NCBI RefSeq assembly: GCF_013122565.1
Contig: NZ_CP053258.1
Strand: one strand, 5' to 3'
Source: Escherichia coli
GTDB lineage: Bacteria; Pseudomonadota; Gammaproteobacteria; Enterobacterales; Enterobacteriaceae
Length of the DNA: 64,000 nt
How positions within the stretch are numbered: the stretch's first letter is position 1; every line of letters starts with the position of its first letter. Position numbers and translations under genes: made by a program. Below, one piece after another: positions 7,708 to 30,677 of this stretch. The notes below the pieces were generated by a model that worked only from the letters and a program-made list of their open reading frames with translations, made no database searches and was not told where the DNA came from.

Positions 7708-7797
7708 GCGATCAGGAAGACCCTCGCGGAGAACCTGAAAGCACGACATTGCTCACATTGCTTCCAGTATTACTTAGCCAGCCGGGTGCTGGCTTTT
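7708..7797 (+). ncRNA. ryhB: small regulatory RNA RyhB (iron-sparing, Fur-repressed, Hfq-dependent)
   Basis: Sequence gcgatcaggaagaccctcgcggagaacctgaaagcacgacattgctcacattgcttccagtattacttagccagccgggtgctggc followed by a T-run is recognised as RyhB; it lies in the yhhY-yhhX intergenic region with an intrinsic terminator hairpin at its 3' end. Confidence 0.9.
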
Positions 7798-7918
7798 TTT
7801 TTGATCTTTCGTTCTCAATTTATCCACGGGAGTGCTTGTGTTCGTTATGCGCACTCCAGTAGGAACCACGTCCGCTTTGCGCTAAGGTGTAAATAACCAC
7901 CTTAAAAAGGACGAAATC

Positions 7919-8956
7919 ATGGTCATCAACTGCGCCTTTATTGGCTTCGGCAAAAGCACCACCCGTTACCATCTGCCGTATGTACTTAACCGCAAGGATA
8001 GCTGGCATGTCGCGCATATTTTTCGCCGCCATGCAAAGCCGGAAGAACAAGCTCCCATTTACTCTCATATCCATTTCACCAGCGATCTCGACGAAGTGCT
8101 AAACGATCCCGATGTTAAGCTGGTTGTTGTCTGCACCCATGCGGACAGCCACTTCGAGTACGCGAAGCGCGCGCTGGAAGCCGGGAAAAATGTGCTGGTC
8201 GAAAAACCGTTCACCCCGACGCTTGCCCAGGCGAAAGAGCTGTTTGCTCTGGCGAAAAGTAAAGGGCTGACCGTCACGCCATATCAGAATCGTCGCTTTG
8301 ATTCCTGCTTCCTGACGGCGAAAAAAGCGATTGAAAGCGGCAAGCTGGGAGAGATTGTCGAAGTGGAAAGCCATTTTGACTATTACCGCCCGGTGGCAGA
8401 AACCAAACCTGGGCTGCCGCAGGATGGCGCGTTCTATGGCCTTGGTGTGCATACGATGGACCAGATTATTTCTCTGTTCGGTCGCCCGGATCACGTCGCT
8501 TATGACATCCGCAGCCTGCGTAATAAAGCCAATCCTGACGACACCTTTGAAGCGCAGCTGTTTTATGGCGACCTGAAAGCCATCGTCAAAACCAGCCATC
8601 TGGTGAAAATCGATTATCCGAAATTTATCGTTCACGGTAAGAAAGGTTCGTTTATTAAATACGGTATCGACCAGCAGGAAACCAGCCTGAAGGCTAATAT
8701 TATGCCGGGCGAACCGGGATTCGCAGCGGATGATTCGGTCGGTGTGCTGGAGTATGTCAATGACGAGGGTGTGACGGTCAGAGAAGAGATGAAGCCAGAG
8801 ATGGGCGATTACGGGCGCGTTTATGATGCGTTGTATCAAACCATCACCAACGGTGCGCCAAATTACGTCAAGGAATCTGAAGTTCTTACCAATCTGGAAA
8901 TCCTTGAACGCGGATTCGAGCAAGCCTCTCCCTCCACAGTGACTCTCGCGAAGTAA
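7919..8956 (+). CDS. yhhX: Gfo/Idh/MocA-family NAD(P)-dependent oxidoreductase
   Basis: 345 aa; N-terminal Rossmann motif AFIGFGKS; conserved position. Confidence 0.85.
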   Translation: MVINCAFIGFGKSTTRYHLPYVLNRKDSWHVAHIFRRHAKPEEQAPIYSHIHFTSDLDEVLNDPDVKLVVVCTHADSHFEYAKRALEAGKNVLVEKPFTPTLAQAKELFALAKSKGLTVTPYQNRRFDSCFLTAKKAIESGKLGEIVEVESHFDYYRPVAETKPGLPQDGAFYGLGVHTMDQIISLFGRPDHVAYDIRSLRNKANPDDTFEAQLFYGDLKAIVKTSHLVKIDYPKFIVHGKKGSFIKYGIDQQETSLKANIMPGEPGFAADDSVGVLEYVNDEGVTVREEMKPEMGDYGRVYDALYQTITNGAPNYVKESEVLTNLEILERGFEQASPSTVTLAK

Positions 8957-9078
8957 GTTTGATGGCCCCTCGAATAGTTCAATTTTTTTGAACAGAGGGG
9001 TCAATTTTCACCCTCTATCATCCCAGGCAGATCGGGTCCACACTAAGCCCATCGAAATCATTCAGGGGGCGAATACAA

Positions 9079-9774
9079 ATGATCTACTTACGCAAAGCAA
9101 ATGAACGTGGTCATGCAAATCATGGCTGGCTGGACTCCTGGCATACTTTCTCTTTTGCCAACTATTACGATCCGAACTTTATGGGCTTCTCCGCGCTGCG
9201 CGTGATTAACGACGACGTGATTGAAGCAGGACAGGGCTTCGGCACTCACCCGCATAAAGATATGGAGATTTTGACCTACGTGCTGGAAGGTACTGTTGAG
9301 CATCAGGACAGCATGGGCAATAAAGAGCAGGTTCCGGCGGGTGAGTTCCAGATTATGAGTGCGGGTACGGGTATTCGTCACTCAGAGTACAACCCAAGCA
9401 GCACCGAGCGTCTGCATCTGTATCAGATCTGGATCATGCCTGAAGAAAACGGTATTACGCCGCGTTATGAACAGCGTCGCTTCGATGCCGTACAGGGCAA
9501 ACAGCTGGTGCTCTCGCCGGATGCGCGAGATGGTTCATTGAAAGTGCATCAGGATATGGAACTGTATCGTTGGGCGTTGCTGAAAGATGAGCAGTCGGTG
9601 CATCAGATTGCCGCTGAACGCCGCGTCTGGATCCAGGTGGTGAAAGGCAATGTCACCATTAACGGCGTGAAAGCCTCGACCAGCGATGGTCTGGCAATCT
9701 GGGATGAGCAGGCGATCTCCATCCATGCGGATAGCGACAGCGAAGTGTTACTGTTCGATCTGCCGCCGGTTTAA
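9079..9774 (+). CDS. yhhW: pirin-like quercetin 2,3-dioxygenase
   Basis: 231 aa; cupin metal-binding His motifs (HPHKDME...); conserved position upstream of gntR. Confidence 0.88.
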   Translation: MIYLRKANERGHANHGWLDSWHTFSFANYYDPNFMGFSALRVINDDVIEAGQGFGTHPHKDMEILTYVLEGTVEHQDSMGNKEQVPAGEFQIMSAGTGIRHSEYNPSSTERLHLYQIWIMPEENGITPRYEQRRFDAVQGKQLVLSPDARDGSLKVHQDMELYRWALLKDEQSVHQIAAERRVWIQVVKGNVTINGVKASTSDGLAIWDEQAISIHADSDSEVLLFDLPPV

Positions 9775-9997
9775 AACTCAACGGCATCTTTGAAGCCTGC
9801 CTTTTTGCAGGCTTCCTCGCTCGCTCCGGTCGCGTGCTGATGTACGCTTCCGGGGTTTTGCCGCGTCGTTAGCACAATGCGATGCAATTGATTTAGTGTA
9901 TATCTAATAATTGTAAACAAGCACTGTTTTCCCCGGGAAGGTTCTGATGCGTCCGTGTTAAACTAAGAGAATCTATCTCTTTTGTACCTTCAGGACG

Positions 9998-10993
9998 ATG
10001 AAAAAGAAAAGACCCGTACTTCAGGATGTGGCTGACCGTGTAGGCGTGACCAAAATGACGGTCAGCCGTTTTTTACGCAACCCGGAGCAGGTTTCCGTCG
10101 CTCTACGCGGCAAGATTGCCGCCGCTCTTGATGAACTGGGCTATATTCCCAATCGTGCGCCCGATATCCTCTCTAACGCCACCAGCCGGGCGATTGGCGT
10201 CCTGTTACCTTCTCTCACCAACCAGGTTTTCGCGGAAGTATTACGCGGAATCGAAAGCGTCACCGACGCGCACGGTTATCAGACCATGCTGGCGCACTAC
10301 GGTTATAAACCGGAAATGGAGCAAGAACGCCTCGAATCCATGCTCTCATGGAATATCGACGGCCTGATCCTCACCGAACGTACCCACACGCCGCGCACCT
10401 TAAAGATGATTGAAGTGGCGGGTATTCCCGTGGTGGAACTGATGGACAGCAAGTCGCCATGCCTCGATATTGCCGTCGGTTTTGATAACTTTGAAGCAGC
10501 ACGCCAGATGACCACTGCCATTATTGCTCGCGGGCATCGCCACATTGCCTATCTCGGCGCACGTCTCGACGAACGTACTATCATCAAACAGAAGGGGTAC
10601 GAACAGGCGATGCTGGATGCAGGTCTGGTGCCGTATAGCGTGATGGTTGAGCAATCTTCTTCTTATTCTTCCGGTATTGAACTGATTCGCCAGGCGCGGC
10701 GGGAATATCCGCAGCTGGATGGCGTGTTCTGTACCAACGATGACCTGGCGGTCGGCGCGGCGTTTGAATGTCAACGTCTGGGGTTGAAAGTTCCTGACGA
10801 TATGGCGATTGCCGGTTTCCACGGTCATGACATTGGTCAGGTGATGGAGCCACGACTGGCGAGCGTGCTTACGCCGCGTGAGCGGATGGGCAGTATTGGC
10901 GCTGAACGCCTGCTGGCGCGTATTCGTGGCGAATCTGTGACACCGAAAATGTTAGATTTAGGTTTCACCTTGTCACCGGGCGGATCTATTTAA
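9998..10993 (+). CDS. gntR: gluconate repressor, LacI family
   Basis: 331 aa; N-terminal helix-turn-helix VTKMTVSRFLRN plus periplasmic-binding-like fold. Confidence 0.92.
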   Translation: MKKKRPVLQDVADRVGVTKMTVSRFLRNPEQVSVALRGKIAAALDELGYIPNRAPDILSNATSRAIGVLLPSLTNQVFAEVLRGIESVTDAHGYQTMLAHYGYKPEMEQERLESMLSWNIDGLILTERTHTPRTLKMIEVAGIPVVELMDSKSPCLDIAVGFDNFEAARQMTTAIIARGHRHIAYLGARLDERTIIKQKGYEQAMLDAGLVPYSVMVEQSSSYSSGIELIRQARREYPQLDGVFCTNDDLAVGAAFECQRLGLKVPDDMAIAGFHGHDIGQVMEPRLASVLTPRERMGSIGAERLLARIRGESVTPKMLDLGFTLSPGGSI

Positions 10994-11072
10994 GCCCACA
11001 AATTTGAAGTAGCTCACACTTATACACTTAAGGCACGGATGGATATTGCTTCTGATATTGTCCGGCCGGACA

Positions 11073-11101
11073 ATGTTACCGATAACAGTTACCAGTAACA
11101 T
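11073..11101 (+). promoter_or_regulatory. GntR operator upstream of gntKU
   Basis: Near-palindrome atgttaccgataacagttaccagtaacat, matching the GntR operator type (ATGTTAC...GTAACAT). Confidence 0.75.
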
Positions 11102-11131
11102 TTTTAATTCTTGTATTGTGGGGGCACCACT

Positions 11132-11659
11132 TTGAGCACGACTAACCATGATCACCACATTTACGTCTTGATGGGCGTATCGGGCAGCGGCAAATCTGCG
11201 GTCGCCAGTGAAGTGGCGCATCAACTTCATGCCGCGTTTCTTGATGGCGATTTCCTCCATCCACGGCGCAATATCGAAAAAATGGCGTCTGGCGAACCGC
11301 TGAATGACGACGATCGCAAACCGTGGTTGCAGGCGCTGAACGACGCCGCGTTTGCTATGCAGCGCACTAATAAAGTGTCGCTGATCGTCTGTTCTGCATT
11401 GAAAAAACACTATCGCGACTTGCTGCGTGAAGGTAATCCGAATCTCTCTTTCATCTACCTGAAAGGCGATTTTGATGTGATTGAAAGCCGCCTGAAAGCG
11501 CGCAAAGGCCATTTCTTTAAAACCCAAATGTTGGTGACGCAGTTTGAAACGCTGCAGGAGCCGGGTGCGGACGAAACCGATGTACTGGTGGTAGATATCG
11601 ATCAACCGCTGGAAGGTGTTGTGGCAAGCACCATTGAGGTTATTAAAAAAGGCAAATAA
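11132..11659 (+). CDS. gntK: gluconokinase (thermoresistant)
   Basis: P-loop GVSGSGKS; product begins STTNHDHHIY, which implies a TTG start at 11132 inside the longer ORF 11111..11659. Confidence 0.88.
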   Translation: MSTTNHDHHIYVLMGVSGSGKSAVASEVAHQLHAAFLDGDFLHPRRNIEKMASGEPLNDDDRKPWLQALNDAAFAMQRTNKVSLIVCSALKKHYRDLLREGNPNLSFIYLKGDFDVIESRLKARKGHFFKTQMLVTQFETLQEPGADETDVLVVDIDQPLEGVVASTIEVIKKGK

Positions 11660-11662
11660 GTA

Positions 11663-13003
11663 GTGACTACATTAACGCTTGTTTTAACAGCAGTAGGGTC
11701 TGTTTTACTGCTGCTGTTTTTAGTCATGAAGGCGCGTATGCACGCTTTCCTGGCTTTGATGGTGGTGTCCATGGGGGCTGGCCTTTTTTCCGGTATGCCG
11801 CTCGATAAAATCGCAGCGACGATGGAAAAAGGGATGGGAGGCACCCTCGGCTTCCTGGCGGTGGTTGTCGCCCTGGGAGCTATGTTTGGCAAGATCTTAC
11901 ATGAAACCGGCGCAGTCGATCAGATTGCCGTCAAAATGCTCAAATCCTTCGGTCACAGCCGCGCGCATTATGCCATCGGCCTTGCGGGGCTGGTCTGTGC
12001 GCTACCGCTGTTCTTTGAAGTGGCGATTGTTCTGCTGATTAGCGTTGCTTTCTCAATGGCGCGCCACACCGGTACGAACCTGGTGAAGCTGGTAATCCCA
12101 TTATTTGCAGGCGTGGCGGCAGCGGCTGCGTTCCTGGTGCCTGGACCAGCGCCAATGCTGCTGGCATCGCAGATGAACGCCGATTTTGGCTGGATGATCC
12201 TGATTGGCCTGTGTGCGGCAATTCCGGGAATGATTATTGCTGGGCCGCTGTGGGGTAACTTTATCAGCCGTTACGTTGAGCTGCATATTCCTGACGACAT
12301 CAGCGAACCGCATCTCGGCGAAGGCAAAATGCCATCTTTCGGATTCAGCCTGTCGCTGATCCTGTTGCCGCTGGTGCTGGTGGGGCTGAAAACCATTGCC
12401 GCGCGTTTTGTGCCAGAAGGCTCTACCGCTTACGAATGGTTCGAGTTTATTGGTCATCCGTTTACCGCGATTCTGGTTGCTTGTCTGGTGGCGATTTACG
12501 GTCTGGCAATGCGTCAGGGCATGCCAAAAGACAAAGTGATGGAGATTTGCGGTCACGCGCTGCAACCGGCGGGGATCATTCTGCTGGTGATTGGTGCAGG
12601 CGGCGTGTTCAAACAGGTGCTGGTTGACTCTGGCGTAGGTCCGGCACTCGGCGAAGCGTTAACCGGCATGGGCCTGCCGATTGCCATCACCTGCTTCGTG
12701 CTGGCAGCGGCGGTGCGCATCATTCAGGGGTCTGCCACCGTTGCCTGCTTAACGGCGGTAGGACTGGTAATGCCGGTCATTGAACAACTGAACTACTCCG
12801 GTGCGCAAATGGCGGCGCTGTCGATTTGTATCGCCGGTGGTTCGATTGTTGTCAGCCACGTTAACGACGCTGGTTTCTGGTTGTTCGGTAAATTTACCGG
12901 CGCGACCGAAGCCGAAACGCTGAAAACCTGGACCATGATGGAAACCATCCTCGGCACTGTCGGTGCCATCGTTGGGATGATTGCGTTCCAGCTGTTGAGT
13001 TAA
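11663..13003 (+). CDS. gntU: low-affinity gluconate:H+ symporter (GntP family)
   Basis: 446-aa polytopic GntP-family transporter; apparent GTG start at 11663, 4 nt after the gntK stop. Confidence 0.9.
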   Translation: MTTLTLVLTAVGSVLLLLFLVMKARMHAFLALMVVSMGAGLFSGMPLDKIAATMEKGMGGTLGFLAVVVALGAMFGKILHETGAVDQIAVKMLKSFGHSRAHYAIGLAGLVCALPLFFEVAIVLLISVAFSMARHTGTNLVKLVIPLFAGVAAAAAFLVPGPAPMLLASQMNADFGWMILIGLCAAIPGMIIAGPLWGNFISRYVELHIPDDISEPHLGEGKMPSFGFSLSLILLPLVLVGLKTIAARFVPEGSTAYEWFEFIGHPFTAILVACLVAIYGLAMRQGMPKDKVMEICGHALQPAGIILLVIGAGGVFKQVLVDSGVGPALGEALTGMGLPIAITCFVLAAAVRIIQGSATVACLTAVGLVMPVIEQLNYSGAQMAALSICIAGGSIVVSHVNDAGFWLFGKFTGATEAETLKTWTMMETILGTVGAIVGMIAFQLLS

Positions 13004-13015
13004 TTACTGCGACAA

Positions 13016-13050
13016 ATTACTGCGAGCTTGCTCGCAGTAATTCATTTCTC
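13016..13050 (+). terminator. perfect palindromic hairpin after gntU
   Basis: aattactgcgagc-tt-gctcgcagtaatt followed by a T-rich tract; half-site also directly repeated at 13002-13012. Confidence 0.6.
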
Positions 13051-13142
13051 TTTTCTCCTCTCTTCATCTTTTTGATCTCTCTCGCAAATTTACCTGCTAA
13101 TAATCCGTTCTAATCACTGCCTAAAGATCGCAGGAGATAAAG

Positions 13143-15239
13143 ATGGAAAAGCACGGAGCTGAATTGCTTTTACAGCGGATGTTAGGCAATACCACCGCTA
13201 CTTTCAGGGAAGGTCAATGGGAAGCCATGGACGCGGTGGTGAACCGACGGCGAAAACTGCTGGTTGTCCAACGCACTGGCTGGGGGAAAAGCGCCGTGTA
13301 CTTCATCTCCAGTAAAATCTTCCGCGATCGCGGCGCTGGCCCGACAATTATCATCTCTCCTTTGCTTGCCCTGATGCGTAACCAGGTTGCCGCCGCTGAA
13401 CGGTTAGGTATTACGGCTGAAACGTTGAATTCTACAAACAGGGAAGAATGGCAGCGCATTAGCGATAAGTTGCTGCAAGGTGCGGTCGATTGCTTGCTGG
13501 TTTCCCCGGAACGTTTGGCAAACCAGGACTTTATCGAAACGGTTTTATATCCTATAGCCGATCGTATTGGTTTGCTTGTGGTCGACGAGGCGCACTGCAT
13601 CTCTGATTGGGGCCACGATTTTCGCCCGGATTACCGACGTATATTAGATATTTTGCGCCAACTGCCTGCGAATACCCCTGTTCTGGGTACAACCGCGACA
13701 GCGAATAACCGTGTCGTTGAGGATATCCGTCAGCAATTGGGTGACATTGTGATTCAGCGTGGAACGCTGGCTCGCGAAAGTTTGGCGCTTGATGCCTTAG
13801 TCTTAGGTGAACAGTCATCCCGTCTGGCATGGTTAGCAACGGTTATCCCTCAGTTTTCCAAATCGGGAATTGTTTATACCCTGACTACTCGCGATGCCGA
13901 ACTTGTCGCCGAGTGGTTAAGGACAAATGGTATCAGTGCATTTGCTTACTACAGCGGCGTGACTTGTGAAGGCGCGGAAGATTCTAATACTGCCAGGGAA
14001 TATCTGGAGCAGGCGCTGCTGGCAAATAAAATCAAAGTGCTGGTCGCGACGACGGCATTAGGTATGGGGTTTGATAAACCTGATTTAGGTTTCGTCATTC
14101 ATTATCAAATGCCGGGGTCTATTGTCGGTTACTACCAACAGGTAGGGCGTGCCGGGCGTGCTATAGATTCCGCTGTTGGCATATTGCTTTGTGGTGGTGA
14201 AGACCGCGCTATTCATAAATTCTTCCGTGAAAGCGCCTTTCCTGCGGAGGCGCAAATTCATGAAATACTCAACGTACTTAGCGAGAATGACGGTCTTACC
14301 CTACGAGGCATTGAACAACGGACGAATCTCCGTTATGGGCAAATAGAAAAAGCACTGAAATTATTGGTAGCTGAAAATCCATCGCCTGTGGTGTATACCG
14401 AGAAATTATGGCGCAGAACTATCGTCAGTTTCTCTCCTGACCATGAACGAATTAACCATTTGATGAATCAGAGAAAAAGTGAGCTGGCAGACGTTGAAAG
14501 CTATGTCACGACCAAGGAGTGCAAAATGCAATTTCTGCGCCGCGCACTCGATGAGCCAAGTGCCGAACGTTGTGGTAAATGTAGCAGTTGTCTTCAGCAT
14601 CCGTTGTTGTCGCCCGATATTGATAGCGGCTTACTCCATGCGGCAAATTTATTTATTAAACACGCTGACCTGCCATTAAATCTCAATAAACAGGTAGCAT
14701 CTGGGGCTTTTACGCAATACGGATTTAAAGGGAACTTGCCTGCGGGTTTACAAGGATCTACGGGGCGAGTCCTTTCTCGTTGGGGAGATTCCGGGTGGGG
14801 AAAGCAGGTAGCACAGGAGAAAAAAACGGGGCGATTCAGTGATGAGCTGGTGGAGGCATGTGCGGAAATGGTTCGCCAACGCTGGAATCCGCATCCTGAA
14901 CCAACCTGGGTATGCTGCGTTCCTTCATTAAGGCACCTCGACCTGGTTCCTAATTTTGCCCGGCGACTGGCGGCGAAACTTGGCTTACCTTTTATTGATG
15001 CCATTGAAAAAGTCGTGGACAATCCACCGCAGAAAATGCAGCAAAACCGTTTTCACCAGTGTCAAAATCTCGACGGGGCGTTTGTGATTACCCCTCCTTT
15101 GATGCCAGGTCCGGCGTTGCTGGTTGACGATATCGTGGATTCTGCATGGACGCTGACAGTTCTGACAGCACTGTTACGCCAGGCAGGTTGCCCGACGGTT
15201 TATCCTCTTGCCCTTGCTTCTACCTCGGTAAAAAATTGA
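13143..15239 (+). CDS. RecQ-family superfamily-2 DNA helicase fused to a C-terminal ComF/GntX-like phosphoribosyltransferase-like domain
   Basis: 698 aa. Walker A QRTGWGKS (aa 43-50); DEAH box VVDEAHCISDWGHDFRPDY (nt 13584-13595); motif III TATA; motif VI QQVGRAGR; Cys cluster ERCGKCSSC; C-terminal LLVDDIVDSAWTLTVLTALL resembles the PRPP-binding loop of PRTases (compare GntX VIVDDVVTTGSTVAEIAQLL in this window). Confidence 0.75.
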   Translation: MEKHGAELLLQRMLGNTTATFREGQWEAMDAVVNRRRKLLVVQRTGWGKSAVYFISSKIFRDRGAGPTIIISPLLALMRNQVAAAERLGITAETLNSTNREEWQRISDKLLQGAVDCLLVSPERLANQDFIETVLYPIADRIGLLVVDEAHCISDWGHDFRPDYRRILDILRQLPANTPVLGTTATANNRVVEDIRQQLGDIVIQRGTLARESLALDALVLGEQSSRLAWLATVIPQFSKSGIVYTLTTRDAELVAEWLRTNGISAFAYYSGVTCEGAEDSNTAREYLEQALLANKIKVLVATTALGMGFDKPDLGFVIHYQMPGSIVGYYQQVGRAGRAIDSAVGILLCGGEDRAIHKFFRESAFPAEAQIHEILNVLSENDGLTLRGIEQRTNLRYGQIEKALKLLVAENPSPVVYTEKLWRRTIVSFSPDHERINHLMNQRKSELADVESYVTTKECKMQFLRRALDEPSAERCGKCSSCLQHPLLSPDIDSGLLHAANLFIKHADLPLNLNKQVASGAFTQYGFKGNLPAGLQGSTGRVLSRWGDSGWGKQVAQEKKTGRFSDELVEACAEMVRQRWNPHPEPTWVCCVPSLRHLDLVPNFARRLAAKLGLPFIDAIEKVVDNPPQKMQQNRFHQCQNLDGAFVITPPLMPGPALLVDDIVDSAWTLTVLTALLRQAGCPTVYPLALASTSVKN

Positions 15240-16441
15240 TGAATCTTTCAGCCAATGCACAAGCAACTCTCCTGCTAACCAGCGATTTTTCTCGCGCGGC
15301 GGCGAGTGAGTATAACCCTCTTAGTAATAGTGAATGGGGGAAGTTTGCATTATGGCTGAAGCACCAACGTATCAGTCCCGCCGATCTTCTGGTGCCGCAA
15401 CCGCAAGAGAAACTTACAGGCTGGAGCGATCCGCGTATTTCTCAGGAGCGTATTCTTGGCTTGCTGGCGCGTGGTCATAGTCTGGCGTTGGCGGTAGATA
15501 AGTGGCAACGCGCCGGTTTATGGATCTTAACCCGCGGAGATGCCGATTATCCCGTTCGCTTGAAAAACCGATTGCGAACGGATGCACCTCCCGTTTTATT
15601 TGGCTGTGGGAATAAAGCATTACTGCAAGCGGAAGGTATGGCGATTGTTGGCTCGCGAGATGCTCCGACTGACGATTTGCGCTATACCCAACAACTGGCC
15701 GCGAAACTGGCCCAACAGGGGATTTGCGTTATCTCTGGTGGTGCGCGAGGTATTGATGAATGTGCAATGGCGTCGGCACTGGAGGCCGGGGGAACTGCCG
15801 TTGGCGTATTAGCTGATAGCTTGTTAAAAACGAGCACGTTAGTGAAATGGCGTGAAGGGCTTATAGCAGGCAACCTGGTGTTGATTTCGCCGTTTTACCC
15901 AGAGGTACGTTTCACTGTCGGCAATGCGATGGCGCGGAATAAATATATTTATTGCCTTGCTGAAAGCGCAATGGTTGTACGTGCGGGAATGTCCGGTGGA
16001 ACGATAACCGGGGCGATGGAAGCATTAAAACATCAGTGGCTGCCTGTGCAGGTTAAACCAAATCAGGATATGCAATCAGCCAATTCACGATTAGTAGAAA
16101 ATGGGGCGTCATGGAGTACTGAACAGGCTGAGAATGTGACGTTCAGACTGCCAGACGTTACTGGGCTGATTTATGACAAAGCACTCCGTAACGCTCAACC
16201 AGAACTGTTTTCGCTGCATGAAGATGACGCAAATTACGCAGTAATGCCCGCGCATACGCCTGTCGATTTTTATCAACTCTTTGTGGCGGAACTGGCGATC
16301 CTTGCAAAGGAATCGATAAGTATTGAAAGGCTGGCGTCTTGTACTGGTTTAACCATCGAACAAATTCGTGTGTGGCTGAACCGCGCAGAAGAAGAGGGAA
16401 GGGTTATTCGATTGGGCGAAGGTCATTATCAGTTCAGGTAA
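15239..16441 (+). CDS. DprA/Smf-like (SLOG Rossmann-fold) DNA-processing protein with a C-terminal winged-helix-like tail
   Basis: 400 aa from MNLSANAQ; ATG overlaps the helicase TGA (TGATG). DprA core motifs MAIVGSRDAP...GICVISGGARGIDECAMASALEAGG (nt ~15737-15757); C-terminal SIERLASCTGLTIEQIRVWLNRAEEEGRVIRL looks like a winged helix. Confidence 0.75.
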   Translation: MNLSANAQATLLLTSDFSRAAASEYNPLSNSEWGKFALWLKHQRISPADLLVPQPQEKLTGWSDPRISQERILGLLARGHSLALAVDKWQRAGLWILTRGDADYPVRLKNRLRTDAPPVLFGCGNKALLQAEGMAIVGSRDAPTDDLRYTQQLAAKLAQQGICVISGGARGIDECAMASALEAGGTAVGVLADSLLKTSTLVKWREGLIAGNLVLISPFYPEVRFTVGNAMARNKYIYCLAESAMVVRAGMSGGTITGAMEALKHQWLPVQVKPNQDMQSANSRLVENGASWSTEQAENVTFRLPDVTGLIYDKALRNAQPELFSLHEDDANYAVMPAHTPVDFYQLFVAELAILAKESISIERLASCTGLTIEQIRVWLNRAEEEGRVIRLGEGHYQFR

Positions 16442-16444
16442 TAA

Positions 16445-16481
16445 AACAGGTGCCGCGTCTGGTTGTGTGCAGCACCTGTTT
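16445..16481. terminator. bidirectional hairpin between the convergent DprA-like gene and yhgN
   Basis: Inverted repeat aacaggtgc...gcacctgtt lying between the two convergent stop codons. Confidence 0.55.
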
Positions 16482-16486
16482 GAACC

Positions 16487-28039: not shown

Positions 28040-28070
28040 CCAAAGGGTCCCGTTTTTTTTCGCCATCATT
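28040..28070 (+). terminator. intrinsic terminator after glgP
   Basis: Hairpin aacggggccaaagggtcccgtt followed by a run of 8 T. Confidence 0.7.
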
Positions 28071-28132
28071 TCGGAAAAGTGTCCAGAAGGGGCAAGGGGA
28101 CTCGGGGAGTATAATTTCGCCATTCAGAAAGA

Positions 28133-29650
28133 ATGGAAAGAATAATGCAAAACAGAAAATGGATTTTGACCTCGCTGGTAATGACTTTTTTCGGCATCCC
28201 CATACTGACGCAATTTTTGGCAGCGGTTGTTGCTATGCTGGGGGGCGGGCTTGCCGCTATTCTTGAGGTTTGCAATTTACTCTTTACGCCAGCAATTTAT
28301 CTTCTACTCAACGTCTTTATGCTGACTCTGGGGGCGATAATAATATTTTTCTCTGGTCGCGTGTGGGCGGGCGATAGTGCACCAGAAAAAAAAGAAATAG
28401 CCGTCTGGCGACAATGTCTTTTTTTAGTACCTGCTTTATTCACCCTGGTTGGCTGGATAATCACGCTACATCTGGCAGATTATCAATTTCGCCAGATGGG
28501 AGACGGTTGGTTGGCAAACCTTATGCTTCCCTGGTTGGGCGTTTTTTTAGTCTCATTAGTGGGTGGTGAGTACTGGTGGATAGTCATTATACCCGTTGGC
28601 GCGCATATCAGTTTTTCGCTGGGGTACGGTTGGCCGACCAGACATCTTTTAACGGGCACGTCCGGGTTACGTTGCCGTAATTCCCTCTTGTTTATCCTTC
28701 TCATGCTTGGTTTTGTCGCCGGTTACCAGGCTTATTTATATAAACAGCTTAATCCCGGCGTCGGTGTGCGTGAAAATATTGATACCTGGGCCTGGCGACC
28801 CGATAAACTCAATAATCAACTGACACCACTGCGTGGTAAACCGCAAATTCAGTTCACGCAAAACTGGCCGCGACTCGATGGTGCTACGGCGGCGTACCCA
28901 ATTTATGCCTCTGCATTTTATGCTTTAAGCGTTATACCGGAAGATTTTCACGCCAGGAAATATCTGGAGAACTCTCGTACCCCCGATGCGTATAACAGGA
29001 TTGTTAAAGGTGATGCCGATATTATTTTTGTGGCGCAGCCCTCCGGTGGGCAGAAAAAACGCGCTGAGGAATCGGGCGTCACTTTGCTGTACACGCCTTT
29101 TGCCCGTGAAGCGTTTGTTTTCATCGTCAATGCAGATAACCCGGTTAATTCCCTGACCGAACAACAAGTGCGTGACATCTTCAGTGGCGCAATTACCAAC
29201 TGGCGCACGGTTGGCGGTAACGATCAGGAGATCCAGACCTGGCAACGCCCGGAAGACTCAGGTAGCCAGACGGTGATGCAGGCGCAGGTCATGAAAAATG
29301 TACGTATGATCTCGCCGCAGGAGACCGAAGTGGCTGAAATGATGGGAGGGATGATTAAAGTTGTTGCCGAATACCGTAATACAAACAACTCAATAGGCTA
29401 CACCTTCCGCTATTACGCAACGCAAATGAATACCGATAAGAATATCAAATTGTTAGCGATTAACGGTATTGCACCGACTGCGGAAAACATCCGTAACGGC
29501 AAATATCCCTATATCGTCGATGCCTTTATGGTAACGCGGGAAAATATGACGTCAGAAACGCAAAAACTGGTGGAATGGTTTTTAACGCCGCAGGGGCAAA
29601 GCCTGGTGGAAGATGTGGGTTATGTGCCGATGTATCCAACAATGAAATAA
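28133..29650 (+). CDS. membrane-embedded protein with C-terminal PstS-like periplasmic binding domain
   Basis: 505 aa. N-terminal ~200 aa contains about 5-6 hydrophobic helices; C-terminal ~290 aa resembles PstS-family binding proteins (GATAAYPIYASAFY, WQRPEDSGSQTVMQ, VGYVPMYP). Start could be 28145. Confidence 0.55.
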   Translation: MERIMQNRKWILTSLVMTFFGIPILTQFLAAVVAMLGGGLAAILEVCNLLFTPAIYLLLNVFMLTLGAIIIFFSGRVWAGDSAPEKKEIAVWRQCLFLVPALFTLVGWIITLHLADYQFRQMGDGWLANLMLPWLGVFLVSLVGGEYWWIVIIPVGAHISFSLGYGWPTRHLLTGTSGLRCRNSLLFILLMLGFVAGYQAYLYKQLNPGVGVRENIDTWAWRPDKLNNQLTPLRGKPQIQFTQNWPRLDGATAAYPIYASAFYALSVIPEDFHARKYLENSRTPDAYNRIVKGDADIIFVAQPSGGQKKRAEESGVTLLYTPFAREAFVFIVNADNPVNSLTEQQVRDIFSGAITNWRTVGGNDQEIQTWQRPEDSGSQTVMQAQVMKNVRMISPQETEVAEMMGGMIKVVAEYRNTNNSIGYTFRYYATQMNTDKNIKLLAINGIAPTAENIRNGKYPYIVDAFMVTRENMTSETQKLVEWFLTPQGQSLVEDVGYVPMYPTMK

Positions 29651-29675
29651 CCCTTGAGAGAAGGGAATCAGGGCG

Positions 29676-30677
29676 ATGAATAAATTCACAGAAGTTTTAC
29701 TGCTAGGTGCGGTATTACTGGCGGGATACGCCGACCGGGAAGCATACTATAACAGCGTCAGGGAAGAAGAGAGTCATGGACTGACTTCTCTGCGGGGACA
29801 GCCTGAATTACGTTACAGCGAAGATTGGTCAAGATGGCCCAGAGTGTACGGCGCTACCGCCTTATACCCCCTGTATGCTTCTGCATATTATGAATTAGTA
29901 CCGGAGCCGAAAGATGCGGATCAAACCTCACTGGCCTGGCAGGCGTATGGTCTGCAGCAAACCCGAACAGCTGAAGCCTACGATAATCTGATTAAAGGTA
30001 CTGCGACTGTTATTTTTGTCGCGCAACCTTCTGAAGGGCAGAAAAAACGTGCAGAAGAAGCGGGAGTTAAGCTGAAATATACCGCGTTTGCCCGCGAAGC
30101 CTTTGTCTTTATCGTTGATATCAAAAACCCGGTGAATTCACTCAGCGAACAGCAGGTCAAAGACATTTTTAGCGGTAAAGTGAGTCGCTGGAATAAAGTC
30201 GGTGGCAGCGACGAACGCATAAAAGTGTGGCAGCGCCCGGAAGATTCCGGTAGCCAGACGGTAATGCAAGAGTTAGTTATGCAAGGCACACCGATGTTAC
30301 CCGCTAAAAAATCAACCATGGTTGATCTTATGGGTGGGTTAATTACCGAAGTCGCCGACTATCAAAACACGCCATCTTCAATCGGTTATACCTTTTATTA
30401 TTATGTTACGCGTATGAATAGTAATATGCTCAAAATGCGCAAGCAGATCAAATTATTAGCCATCAACGGCGTCGCCCCCACTGAGGAAAATATTCGCAAC
30501 GGATCTTATCCCTATATTGTGGACGCCTATATGGTGACCCGTGAAAATCCAGCACCGGAAACGCAAAAGTTTGTCGACTGTTTTTTAAGCCCGCAGGGGC
30601 AACAGTTGGTGCAGGATGTGGGGTATGTGCCTTTATACCCGATTACGAACTCTCGTAAAAAGGATTTTGAAAAATGA
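29676..30677 (+). CDS. secreted PstS-like periplasmic binding-domain protein, paralog of the preceding gene
   Basis: 333 aa with N-terminal signal peptide; shares GATALYPLYASAYY, WQRPEDSGSQTVMQ and VGYVPLYP with the upstream gene. Confidence 0.55.
   Translation: MNKFTEVLLLGAVLLAGYADREAYYNSVREEESHGLTSLRGQPELRYSEDWSRWPRVYGATALYPLYASAYYELVPEPKDADQTSLAWQAYGLQQTRTAEAYDNLIKGTATVIFVAQPSEGQKKRAEEAGVKLKYTAFAREAFVFIVDIKNPVNSLSEQQVKDIFSGKVSRWNKVGGSDERIKVWQRPEDSGSQTVMQELVMQGTPMLPAKKSTMVDLMGGLITEVADYQNTPSSIGYTFYYYVTRMNSNMLKMRKQIKLLAINGVAPTEENIRNGSYPYIVDAYMVTRENPAPETQKFVDCFLSPQGQQLVQDVGYVPLYPITNSRKKDFEK

Follow-up and report, generated by a model that had tools for sequence, protein, structure and literature searches.

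Where do the kinase and transporter genes of the gluconate operon begin in this stretch of Escherichia coli DNA, and does the manner in which they begin set the amount of transporter made relative to kinase? The original prediction assigned a TTG start to gntK and a GTG start to gntU, and proposed that weak starts combined with tight coupling tune the stoichiometry of the two products. The window (the whole stretch of DNA that was analysed, 64,000 nucleotides in length) contains the three genes concerned:

9998..10993, + strand: gntR, gene for the repressor of the GntI gluconate system; ATG start, 331 aa (open reading frame list and annotation in K-12 and strain TB06052).
11132..11659, + strand: gntK, thermoresistant gluconokinase; TTG start, 175 aa, TAA stop; extent as in K-12 b3437.
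11663..13003, + strand: gntU, low-affinity gluconate transporter; GTG start, 446 aa; extent as in K-12 b4476.

Together they form the well-known GntI gluconate locus of E. coli, gntR-gntKU, which was found in 5,424 of 5,426 complete E. coli genomes. The window agrees with K-12 gntRKU (b3438, b3437, and b4476) in gene order, starts, and stops, with 98.3% nucleotide identity over 7724-13003, and the orthology and synteny of gntR-gntK-gntU are evident from 98-99.6% identity and the same CDS coordinates once aligned. In the RefSeq annotation of K-12 MG1655, gntK (3577065..3577592, 175 aa) and gntU (3575721..3577061, 446 aa) are separated by 3 nt, and when these boundaries are aligned to the window they fall exactly on 11132 and 11663, with identical sequences flanking both starts. 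Comparison with the annotated K-12 starts, which had been put forward as a check, thus shows that both predicted starts coincide with the MG1655 models. The NCBI pipeline annotation of the closest strain (TB06052) likewise gives identical gntK and gntU models. The TTG and GTG starts therefore restate the current K-12 annotation and are already known. The window differs from K-12 in a few synonymous SNPs, in a rare C-to-A change at 11094, and in a 3.48-kb RecQ-helicase/DprA-like insertion located immediately 3' of gntU.

The change at 11094 is a central SNP (A in the window, C in K-12) in the second of two predicted operators that, together with a predicted CRP site, precede gntK:

11000..11021, + strand: predicted CRP site 5' of gntK, with the sequence AAATTTGAAGTAGCTCACACTT, which PMC2395238 gives for the CRP site of gntKU.
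11073..11101, + strand: a pair of predicted GntR operators, ATGTTACCGATAACA and GTTACCAGTAACAT, which are overlapping palindromes centred ~13 bp apart; from the sequence and the K-12 alignment.

Overlapping GntR sites ~13 bp apart upstream of gntKU have been cited previously (PMC4052901).

The open reading frame list contains one frame of 182 aa, opening at 11111, and another of 446 aa at 11663. Direct reading of the window confirmed that S-T-T-N-H-D-H-H follows the TTG at 11132-11134 in frame, so that the recognizable GntK N-terminus does begin at a TTG codon inside a longer open reading frame, as had been predicted. The gntK stop codon (TAA, 11657-11659) is followed by GTA and then by the gntU GTG (11663-11665); the placement of the gntU start 4 nt past the gntK stop was also correct, in the sense that the GTG begins at the fourth base after the TAA, leaving a 3-nt spacer. 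The 'upstream ATG at 11111', which had been named as the competing gntK start, does not exist: the codon at 11111-11113 is TTG. To our reading, the main weight in choosing between the possible starts lies in comparative data. The comparison set comprised the locus from 80 Enterobacteriaceae species, all of them closest relatives with GntK at least 90% identical, giving 81 sequences with the window.

At the position of 11132, 77 of the 80 species have TTG and the other three (Yokenella, Trabulsiella, and Buttiauxella) have ATG. GntK residues 2-13, STTNHDHH(I/V)YVL, are conserved at the protein level across the set while their third bases vary freely. The seven in-frame codons 5' of the TTG yield 38 different translations, two of which contain stops. 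Matches to kinase-domain profiles (AAA-type kinase or kinase-fold) begin at GntK residues 7-12. GntK is a P-loop gluconokinase: over residues 1-175 it matches the gluconate kinase chain of PDB 1KNQ (E = 1e-115), which is identical in sequence and opens with MSTTNHDHH; six PDB entries of E. coli gluconate kinase, including 1KNQ, contain this 175-aa chain, the product of the TTG start. A ribosome-binding element is found at the expected place:

11120..11124, + strand: Shine-Dalgarno-like GGGGG of gntK, 7 nt upstream of the TTG; predicted duplex with the 16S 3' end of -8.4 kcal/mol.

A G-rich element (GGGGG, GGGAG, GAGGG, or AGGAGG) lies 4-7 nt before the gntK start in all 81 sequences, with a mean duplex energy of -8.1 kcal/mol. 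The gntK leader has an MFE of -6.8 kcal/mol against a shuffle mean of -12.1 kcal/mol; of 200 shuffles, 197 are more structured. Both gntK and gntU have the properties expected of genes with non-AUG starts, i.e. conserved coding that begins at the UUG or GUG, a properly spaced ribosome-binding motif, and no in-frame AUG that would spare the conserved protein. On these comparative grounds, the gntK start is the TTG at 11132. UniProt P46859 reportedly cites Edman data on GntK from Izu et al. 1996.

Public collections carry three gntK models, of 162, 175 (the one named GNTK_ECOLI), and 182 aa, and the two others have to be weighed against this assignment. The 182-aa model (MYCGGTTLSTTNH...), in which gntK begins at the first start codon of its frame, the TTG at 11111, has in its favour that it is the longest open reading frame and is present in some public records of E. 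coli O157:H7. However, no Shine-Dalgarno-like sequence precedes that TTG, and an in-frame start codon at the corresponding offset, 21 nt upstream, occurs in just 16 of the 80 species. Upstream of 11132 the frame lacks protein conservation and in some species stops within 7 codons, and the G-rich element, correctly spaced for 11132, would fall inside the supposed coding stretch. The K-12 RefSeq entry, UniProt naming, and PDB all use 175 aa rather than 182. We give this model almost no credence; it is effectively refuted by the comparison, given the unconserved upstream frame and the missing Shine-Dalgarno-like sequence. The 162-aa model, which the original annotation of K-12 called 'ORF_f162', takes the first ATG (11171, Met14) as its start. 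ATG is the usual start codon, the model is common among public records (998 contigs), and a 2008 paper that puts the gntKU CRP site at -171 is consistent with it (PMC2395238). Against it, a start at 11171 would drop residues 2-13, whose protein is conserved across the 80 species with synonymous variation, and the kinase profiles start before Met14; furthermore, the crystallised protein has 175 aa, not 162, and the current RefSeq GntK (NP_417894.2) is also of 175 aa. The 162-aa model is rejected on the conservation of residues 2-13 and the reach of the kinase profiles to residues 7-12, and as the start of gntK it appears very improbable, although internal initiation at 11171 may yield a minor product. 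In the published N-terminomics and ribosome-profiling supplements that were searched, there was no gntK or gntU entry.

The assignment of gntU is simpler. GntU is a GntP-family permease (PF02447 GntP_permease, E = 2e-168), and its residues 5-441 span positions 2-437 of the 440-position profile; its N-terminus also aligns with those of the ATG-started paralogues GntT and IdnT. Because the profile is covered from position 2 and the N-termini align, the comparison places the start of gntU at GTG 11663 and not at the ATG of codon 23. Among the 81 sequences, the gntU start codon is GTG in 62, TTG in 19, and ATG in none. The motif that precedes it is weak:

11649..11652, + strand: weak Shine-Dalgarno-like AAGG of gntU, within the last gntK codons and part of a conserved AAAGGC motif.

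The predicted duplex of this AAGG with the 16S 3' end has an energy of -3.2 to -4.4 kcal/mol in most sequences, compared with the mean of -8.1 kcal/mol for gntK. AAAGGC or AAGGC is found in 76 of the 81 sequences even though the C-terminal reading frame and length of GntK vary between species. In the 80 species the gntU start always lies -4 to +18 nt from the gntK stop; the junction takes the forms TAAgtaGTG, TAAgttTTG, TAGTG, or GTGA, with spacers of 12-18 nt in a few species. There are translationally coupled gene pairs in operons whose stop and start codons overlap or abut (e.g. ATGA or GTGA). The gntK-gntU pair resembles such pairs in its stop-start distance (3 nt in the window; -4, -1, or +3 nt in most of the 80 species), in its weak downstream motif, and in its non-AUG start. 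From this junction anatomy we infer translational coupling with an inefficient restart, which would yield less transporter than kinase. GntU synthesis is not known to depend on gntK translation. An alternative is that gntU initiates independently on its own ribosome-binding site and that its nearness to the gntK stop reflects genome compaction. The presence of AAAGGC 5-10 nt before the gntU start in those 76 sequences, whatever the gntK frame, and the longer spacers in a few species would fit this reading. However, pairing between the motif and the 16S 3' end is weak, ATG never serves as the start codon, and most junctions are overlaps or 3-nt spacers, as is typical of coupled pairs, and we regard independent initiation as rather unlikely to be the main explanation. 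Independent and coupled initiation of gntU are not mutually exclusive.

Whether the non-ATG codons have been retained for a purpose is a separate matter. Retention was assessed both within E. coli and on a neighbour-joining tree of 78 species, on which 136 four-fold degenerate sites (median 15 changes, 10th percentile 6) served as a neutral reference, though these sites are themselves not strictly neutral. A 57-mer around the gntK start was found exactly in 4,969 of the 5,424 E. coli genomes and its ATG or GTG versions in none; the 57-mer at the gntU junction was found exactly in 5,299 and its ATG version again in none. On the tree, the first base of the gntK start has changed twice, and just 5% of the four-fold sites change so rarely. 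The retention of the gntK TTG goes against a genome-wide trend in which AUG replaces UUG and GUG starts (Belinky et al., PMC5622118). At gntU, four GTG/TTG switches were counted on the tree. ATG never occurs there, but this is not significant, since 8 of 57 comparable neutral sites with G as the major base likewise never carry A; it is therefore suggestive only. In E. coli, UUG is the initiation codon of about 3% of genes and GUG that of 14%, according to the preprint of Hecht et al.; the chance of an adjacent TTG/GTG pair is ~0.4% per gene pair, so that a handful per genome is expected. The TTG/GTG pairing itself is not beyond chance, and only the retention of the gntK start mildly exceeds what neutrality predicts.

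Nor does a non-AUG codon guarantee a weak start. The reported strength of GUG and UUG ranges from 5% to 94% of that of AUG depending on context, which means that 'weak' cannot be taken for granted at gntK and gntU. As for gntK, the codon is indeed TTG as originally predicted, but it is paired with a strong G5 Shine-Dalgarno-like element, and the start is thus not simply weak. In the three species with an ATG start, the Shine-Dalgarno-like elements are weaker (-5.8 to -6.5), which matches the compensation described by Belinky et al. (PMC5622118). The combination of a strong element with TTG looks like compensation as much as down-tuning. The paralogues idnK and idnT (GntII/idonate) and gntT encode a homologous kinase and homologous GntP-family transporters with N-termini that align with those of GntK and GntU (PMC4052901). 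Unlike gntK and gntU, all three start with ATG, and no transporter gene follows idnK.

These observations bear on a reading in which the starts are as annotated and the non-ATG codons have no tuning role, being near-neutral variants that are tolerated because the promoter, GntR, CRP, and the ribosome-binding sites determine expression. Across the genome, start codons are under weak selection, with a sizeable neutral range of initiation rates (PMC5622118), and the swapping of GTG and TTG at gntU, the non-significant lack of ATG there, and the context dependence of GUG and UUG strength all agree with it. On the other side stand the two changes at the first base of the gntK TTG against the median at four-fold sites, despite the fact that a single T-to-A change gives the favoured ATG, the lack of any exact ATG or GTG variant of the gntK start in the E. 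coli genomes, and the ATG starts of the paralogues. We consider this reading possible but doubtful. Of what had been proposed, the TTG and GTG starts and the tight junction stand, and the tuning of the kinase:transporter ratio by weak starts is, from the sequence comparisons, plausible but weakly supported.

A further element that may act on this ratio lies within gntU, and a similar one follows the gene:

11686..11723, + strand: terminator-like hairpin AACAGCAGTAG...CTGCTGCTGTT with a U-tract that follows or merges with it, at gntU codons 8-20, 23 nt into gntU; consensus scan.
13015..13052, + strand: terminator-like hairpin with a T-rich tail, just past the gntU stop, with a 12-pair stem AATTACTGCGAG/CTCGCAGTAATT; consensus scan only.

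The original prediction stopped short of the hairpin within gntU, which is the more informative feature. This hairpin has a moderately G+C-rich 11-pair stem with 4 G-C pairs and the tail CTGTTTTTAG, i.e. a stem-loop with a U-tract. The stem is built from the codons ACA-GCA-GT and CTG-CTG-CTG, which are followed by TTTTTA. When the window sequence is recoded synonymously, 3.8% of the variants reach its MFE of -16.4 kcal/mol. The hairpin is present in ~75 of the 80 species; in Salmonella it is much weaker and without the U-tract, and in Kosakonia cowanii it is weaker with the U-tract kept, so that some lineages can do without it. Synonymous choice at the stem and U-tract codons is strongly constrained (ACA in 64, GCA in 76, CTG17 in 81, TTT19 in 80, and the rare TTA20 in 69 of the 81 sequences), whereas codons 11-14, in the loop, are free to vary (15-22 changes on the tree). 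This synonymous constraint indicates conservation beyond what the protein requires.

In the alignment of the stem, 92.9% of cells are paired. The covariation test revealed no double compensatory changes, and shuffles and slides of +/-3 nt do nearly as well as the real stem, because the CTG repeats allow alternative registers. Given these registers and the lack of covariation, the support for the hairpin comes from synonymous constraint only. A crude terminator classifier did not flag the real sequence, since the MFE register takes in part of the U-tract, and its statistic was set aside. A scan of 10900-11900 against Rfam detected no known RNA family. The 3'-end mapping supplements of PMC7815308 (Adams 2021), from cultures presumably not induced with gluconate, contain no gntU entry. 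A full-text literature search, with the primary gnt papers outside its scope, returned nothing on gntK or gntU start codons or on gntU attenuation. The hairpin is probably already known; attenuation between gntK and gntU is said to have been described by Izu et al. in 1997. The hairpin resembles intra-operon intrinsic terminators (attenuators), which fix the expression of promoter-proximal genes relative to distal ones, in having a stem-loop and a U-tract soon after the first gene, in its occurrence across genera, and in its synonymous constraint. It differs from them in that it lies inside coding sequence (codons 8-20), so that a ribosome translating gntU would melt the stem, and in that the stem is mixed A/U-G/C and moderately stable (-16 kcal/mol). 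The hairpin probably contributes more to the GntK:GntU ratio than the start codons do.

Taken as a whole, the explanation that we favour, with good though not complete confidence, combines the GntI locus, the TTG 11132 and GTG 11663 starts, a coupled and inefficient gntU restart, and a hairpin that trims gntU transcripts. According to this explanation, gntK would be initiated de novo at a moderate rate, the weak codon being offset by the strong ribosome-binding site, and gntU would be translated mainly by ribosomes that have just left gntK and restart inefficiently on the GTG. The same mRNA would therefore give less GntU than GntK, and the conserved hairpin with its U-tract would lower the share of transcripts that reach through gntU, adding a second layer of control to the ratio. 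A more specific version would make the gntU GTG and the hairpin one device, in which translation-dependent attenuation inside the transporter gene sets the kinase:transporter ratio and the start is kept non-AUG to fix the fraction of read-through. A ribosome re-initiating on the GTG would mask the 5' arm (11686-11696) or unwind it, and RNA polymerase would read through; when re-initiation fails, the hairpin would form and transcription would end after gntK. We view this single-device version as improbable.

The starts themselves carry little discovery value since they are already contained in the K-12 annotation, UniProt naming, and PDB. The practical value of the comparison concerns annotation, where the data clearly favour the 175-aa TTG model of gntK over those of 162 and 182 aa. 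If the proposed tuning is true, gntKU would be a compact and well-conserved case of a fixed enzyme:transporter ratio, in which a non-AUG start, stop-start coupling, and an intragenic terminator are combined; such a combination would be useful for operon design, and would introduce no new principle.

Three gene models for the gluconate kinase gene gntK coexist in public protein collections, namely 182-, 175- and 162-aa versions that start at 11111, 11132 and 11171 of the window, respectively. The 162-aa model corresponds to 'ORF_f162' of the first K-12 annotation and persists on about 1,000 contigs; the published offset of the gntKU CRP site, -171, fits this model (PMC2395238). Upstream of gntK, the second of the GntR operator-like palindromes (11088-11099) has A at its central position, 11094, in the window but C in K-12 and almost every other E. 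coli (GTTACCAGTAAC and GTTACCCGTAAC, respectively). The exact 57-mer spanning 11070-11126 is rare, being found in 4 of 5,426 complete E. coli genomes. A at 11094 might alter the repression of gntKU by GntR.

Compared with K-12, the window carries an extra 3.48-kb segment (13004-16486), which begins immediately past the gntU stop codon and runs up to yhgN. In this segment, a DprA-like gene, annotated in TB06052, the strain closest to the window, overlaps and follows a RecQ-family helicase gene:

13143-15239, RecQ-family helicase ORF (698 aa), based on the annotation in TB06052

At 28055-30631, identity to TB06052 is only 88%, compared with 97.7% in the remainder of the window. The genes in this region, located 3' of glgP, are annotated in TB06052 as PstS-family phosphate-binding proteins. 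TB06052 contains an IS200C copy in the equivalent region, whereas the window lacks it there.

The gluconate transporter gene gntU contains the following element:

11686-11723, + strand, terminator-like hairpin and U-tract within gntU codons 8-20

Across Enterobacteriaceae, this element is conserved; its stem and U-tract are under strong synonymous constraint, whereas the loop shows no such constraint. In Salmonella (L010 and L011), the hairpin is weak or the U-tract is missing; Kosakonia cowanii (L078) also has a weak hairpin. The assemblies of four species (loci L008, L011, L032 and L066) showed no long downstream gntU ORF in the frame where one was expected, yet they do encode the conserved gntU N-terminus; frameshifts, pseudogenes or sequencing errors are possible causes.

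At the junction of the two genes (window 11640-11662; loci L003-L082, fetched from 80 Enterobacteriaceae species), the GntK C-terminus does not have a fixed length among genera (173-177 aa), and its frame and stop codon differ as well, with variants including KKGK*, NKRQ*, NKGSK* and NKGSTL*. Despite this divergence, the motif AAAGGC(A) is kept at the nucleotide level, as would be expected if it had a role in gntU initiation and not in the kinase.
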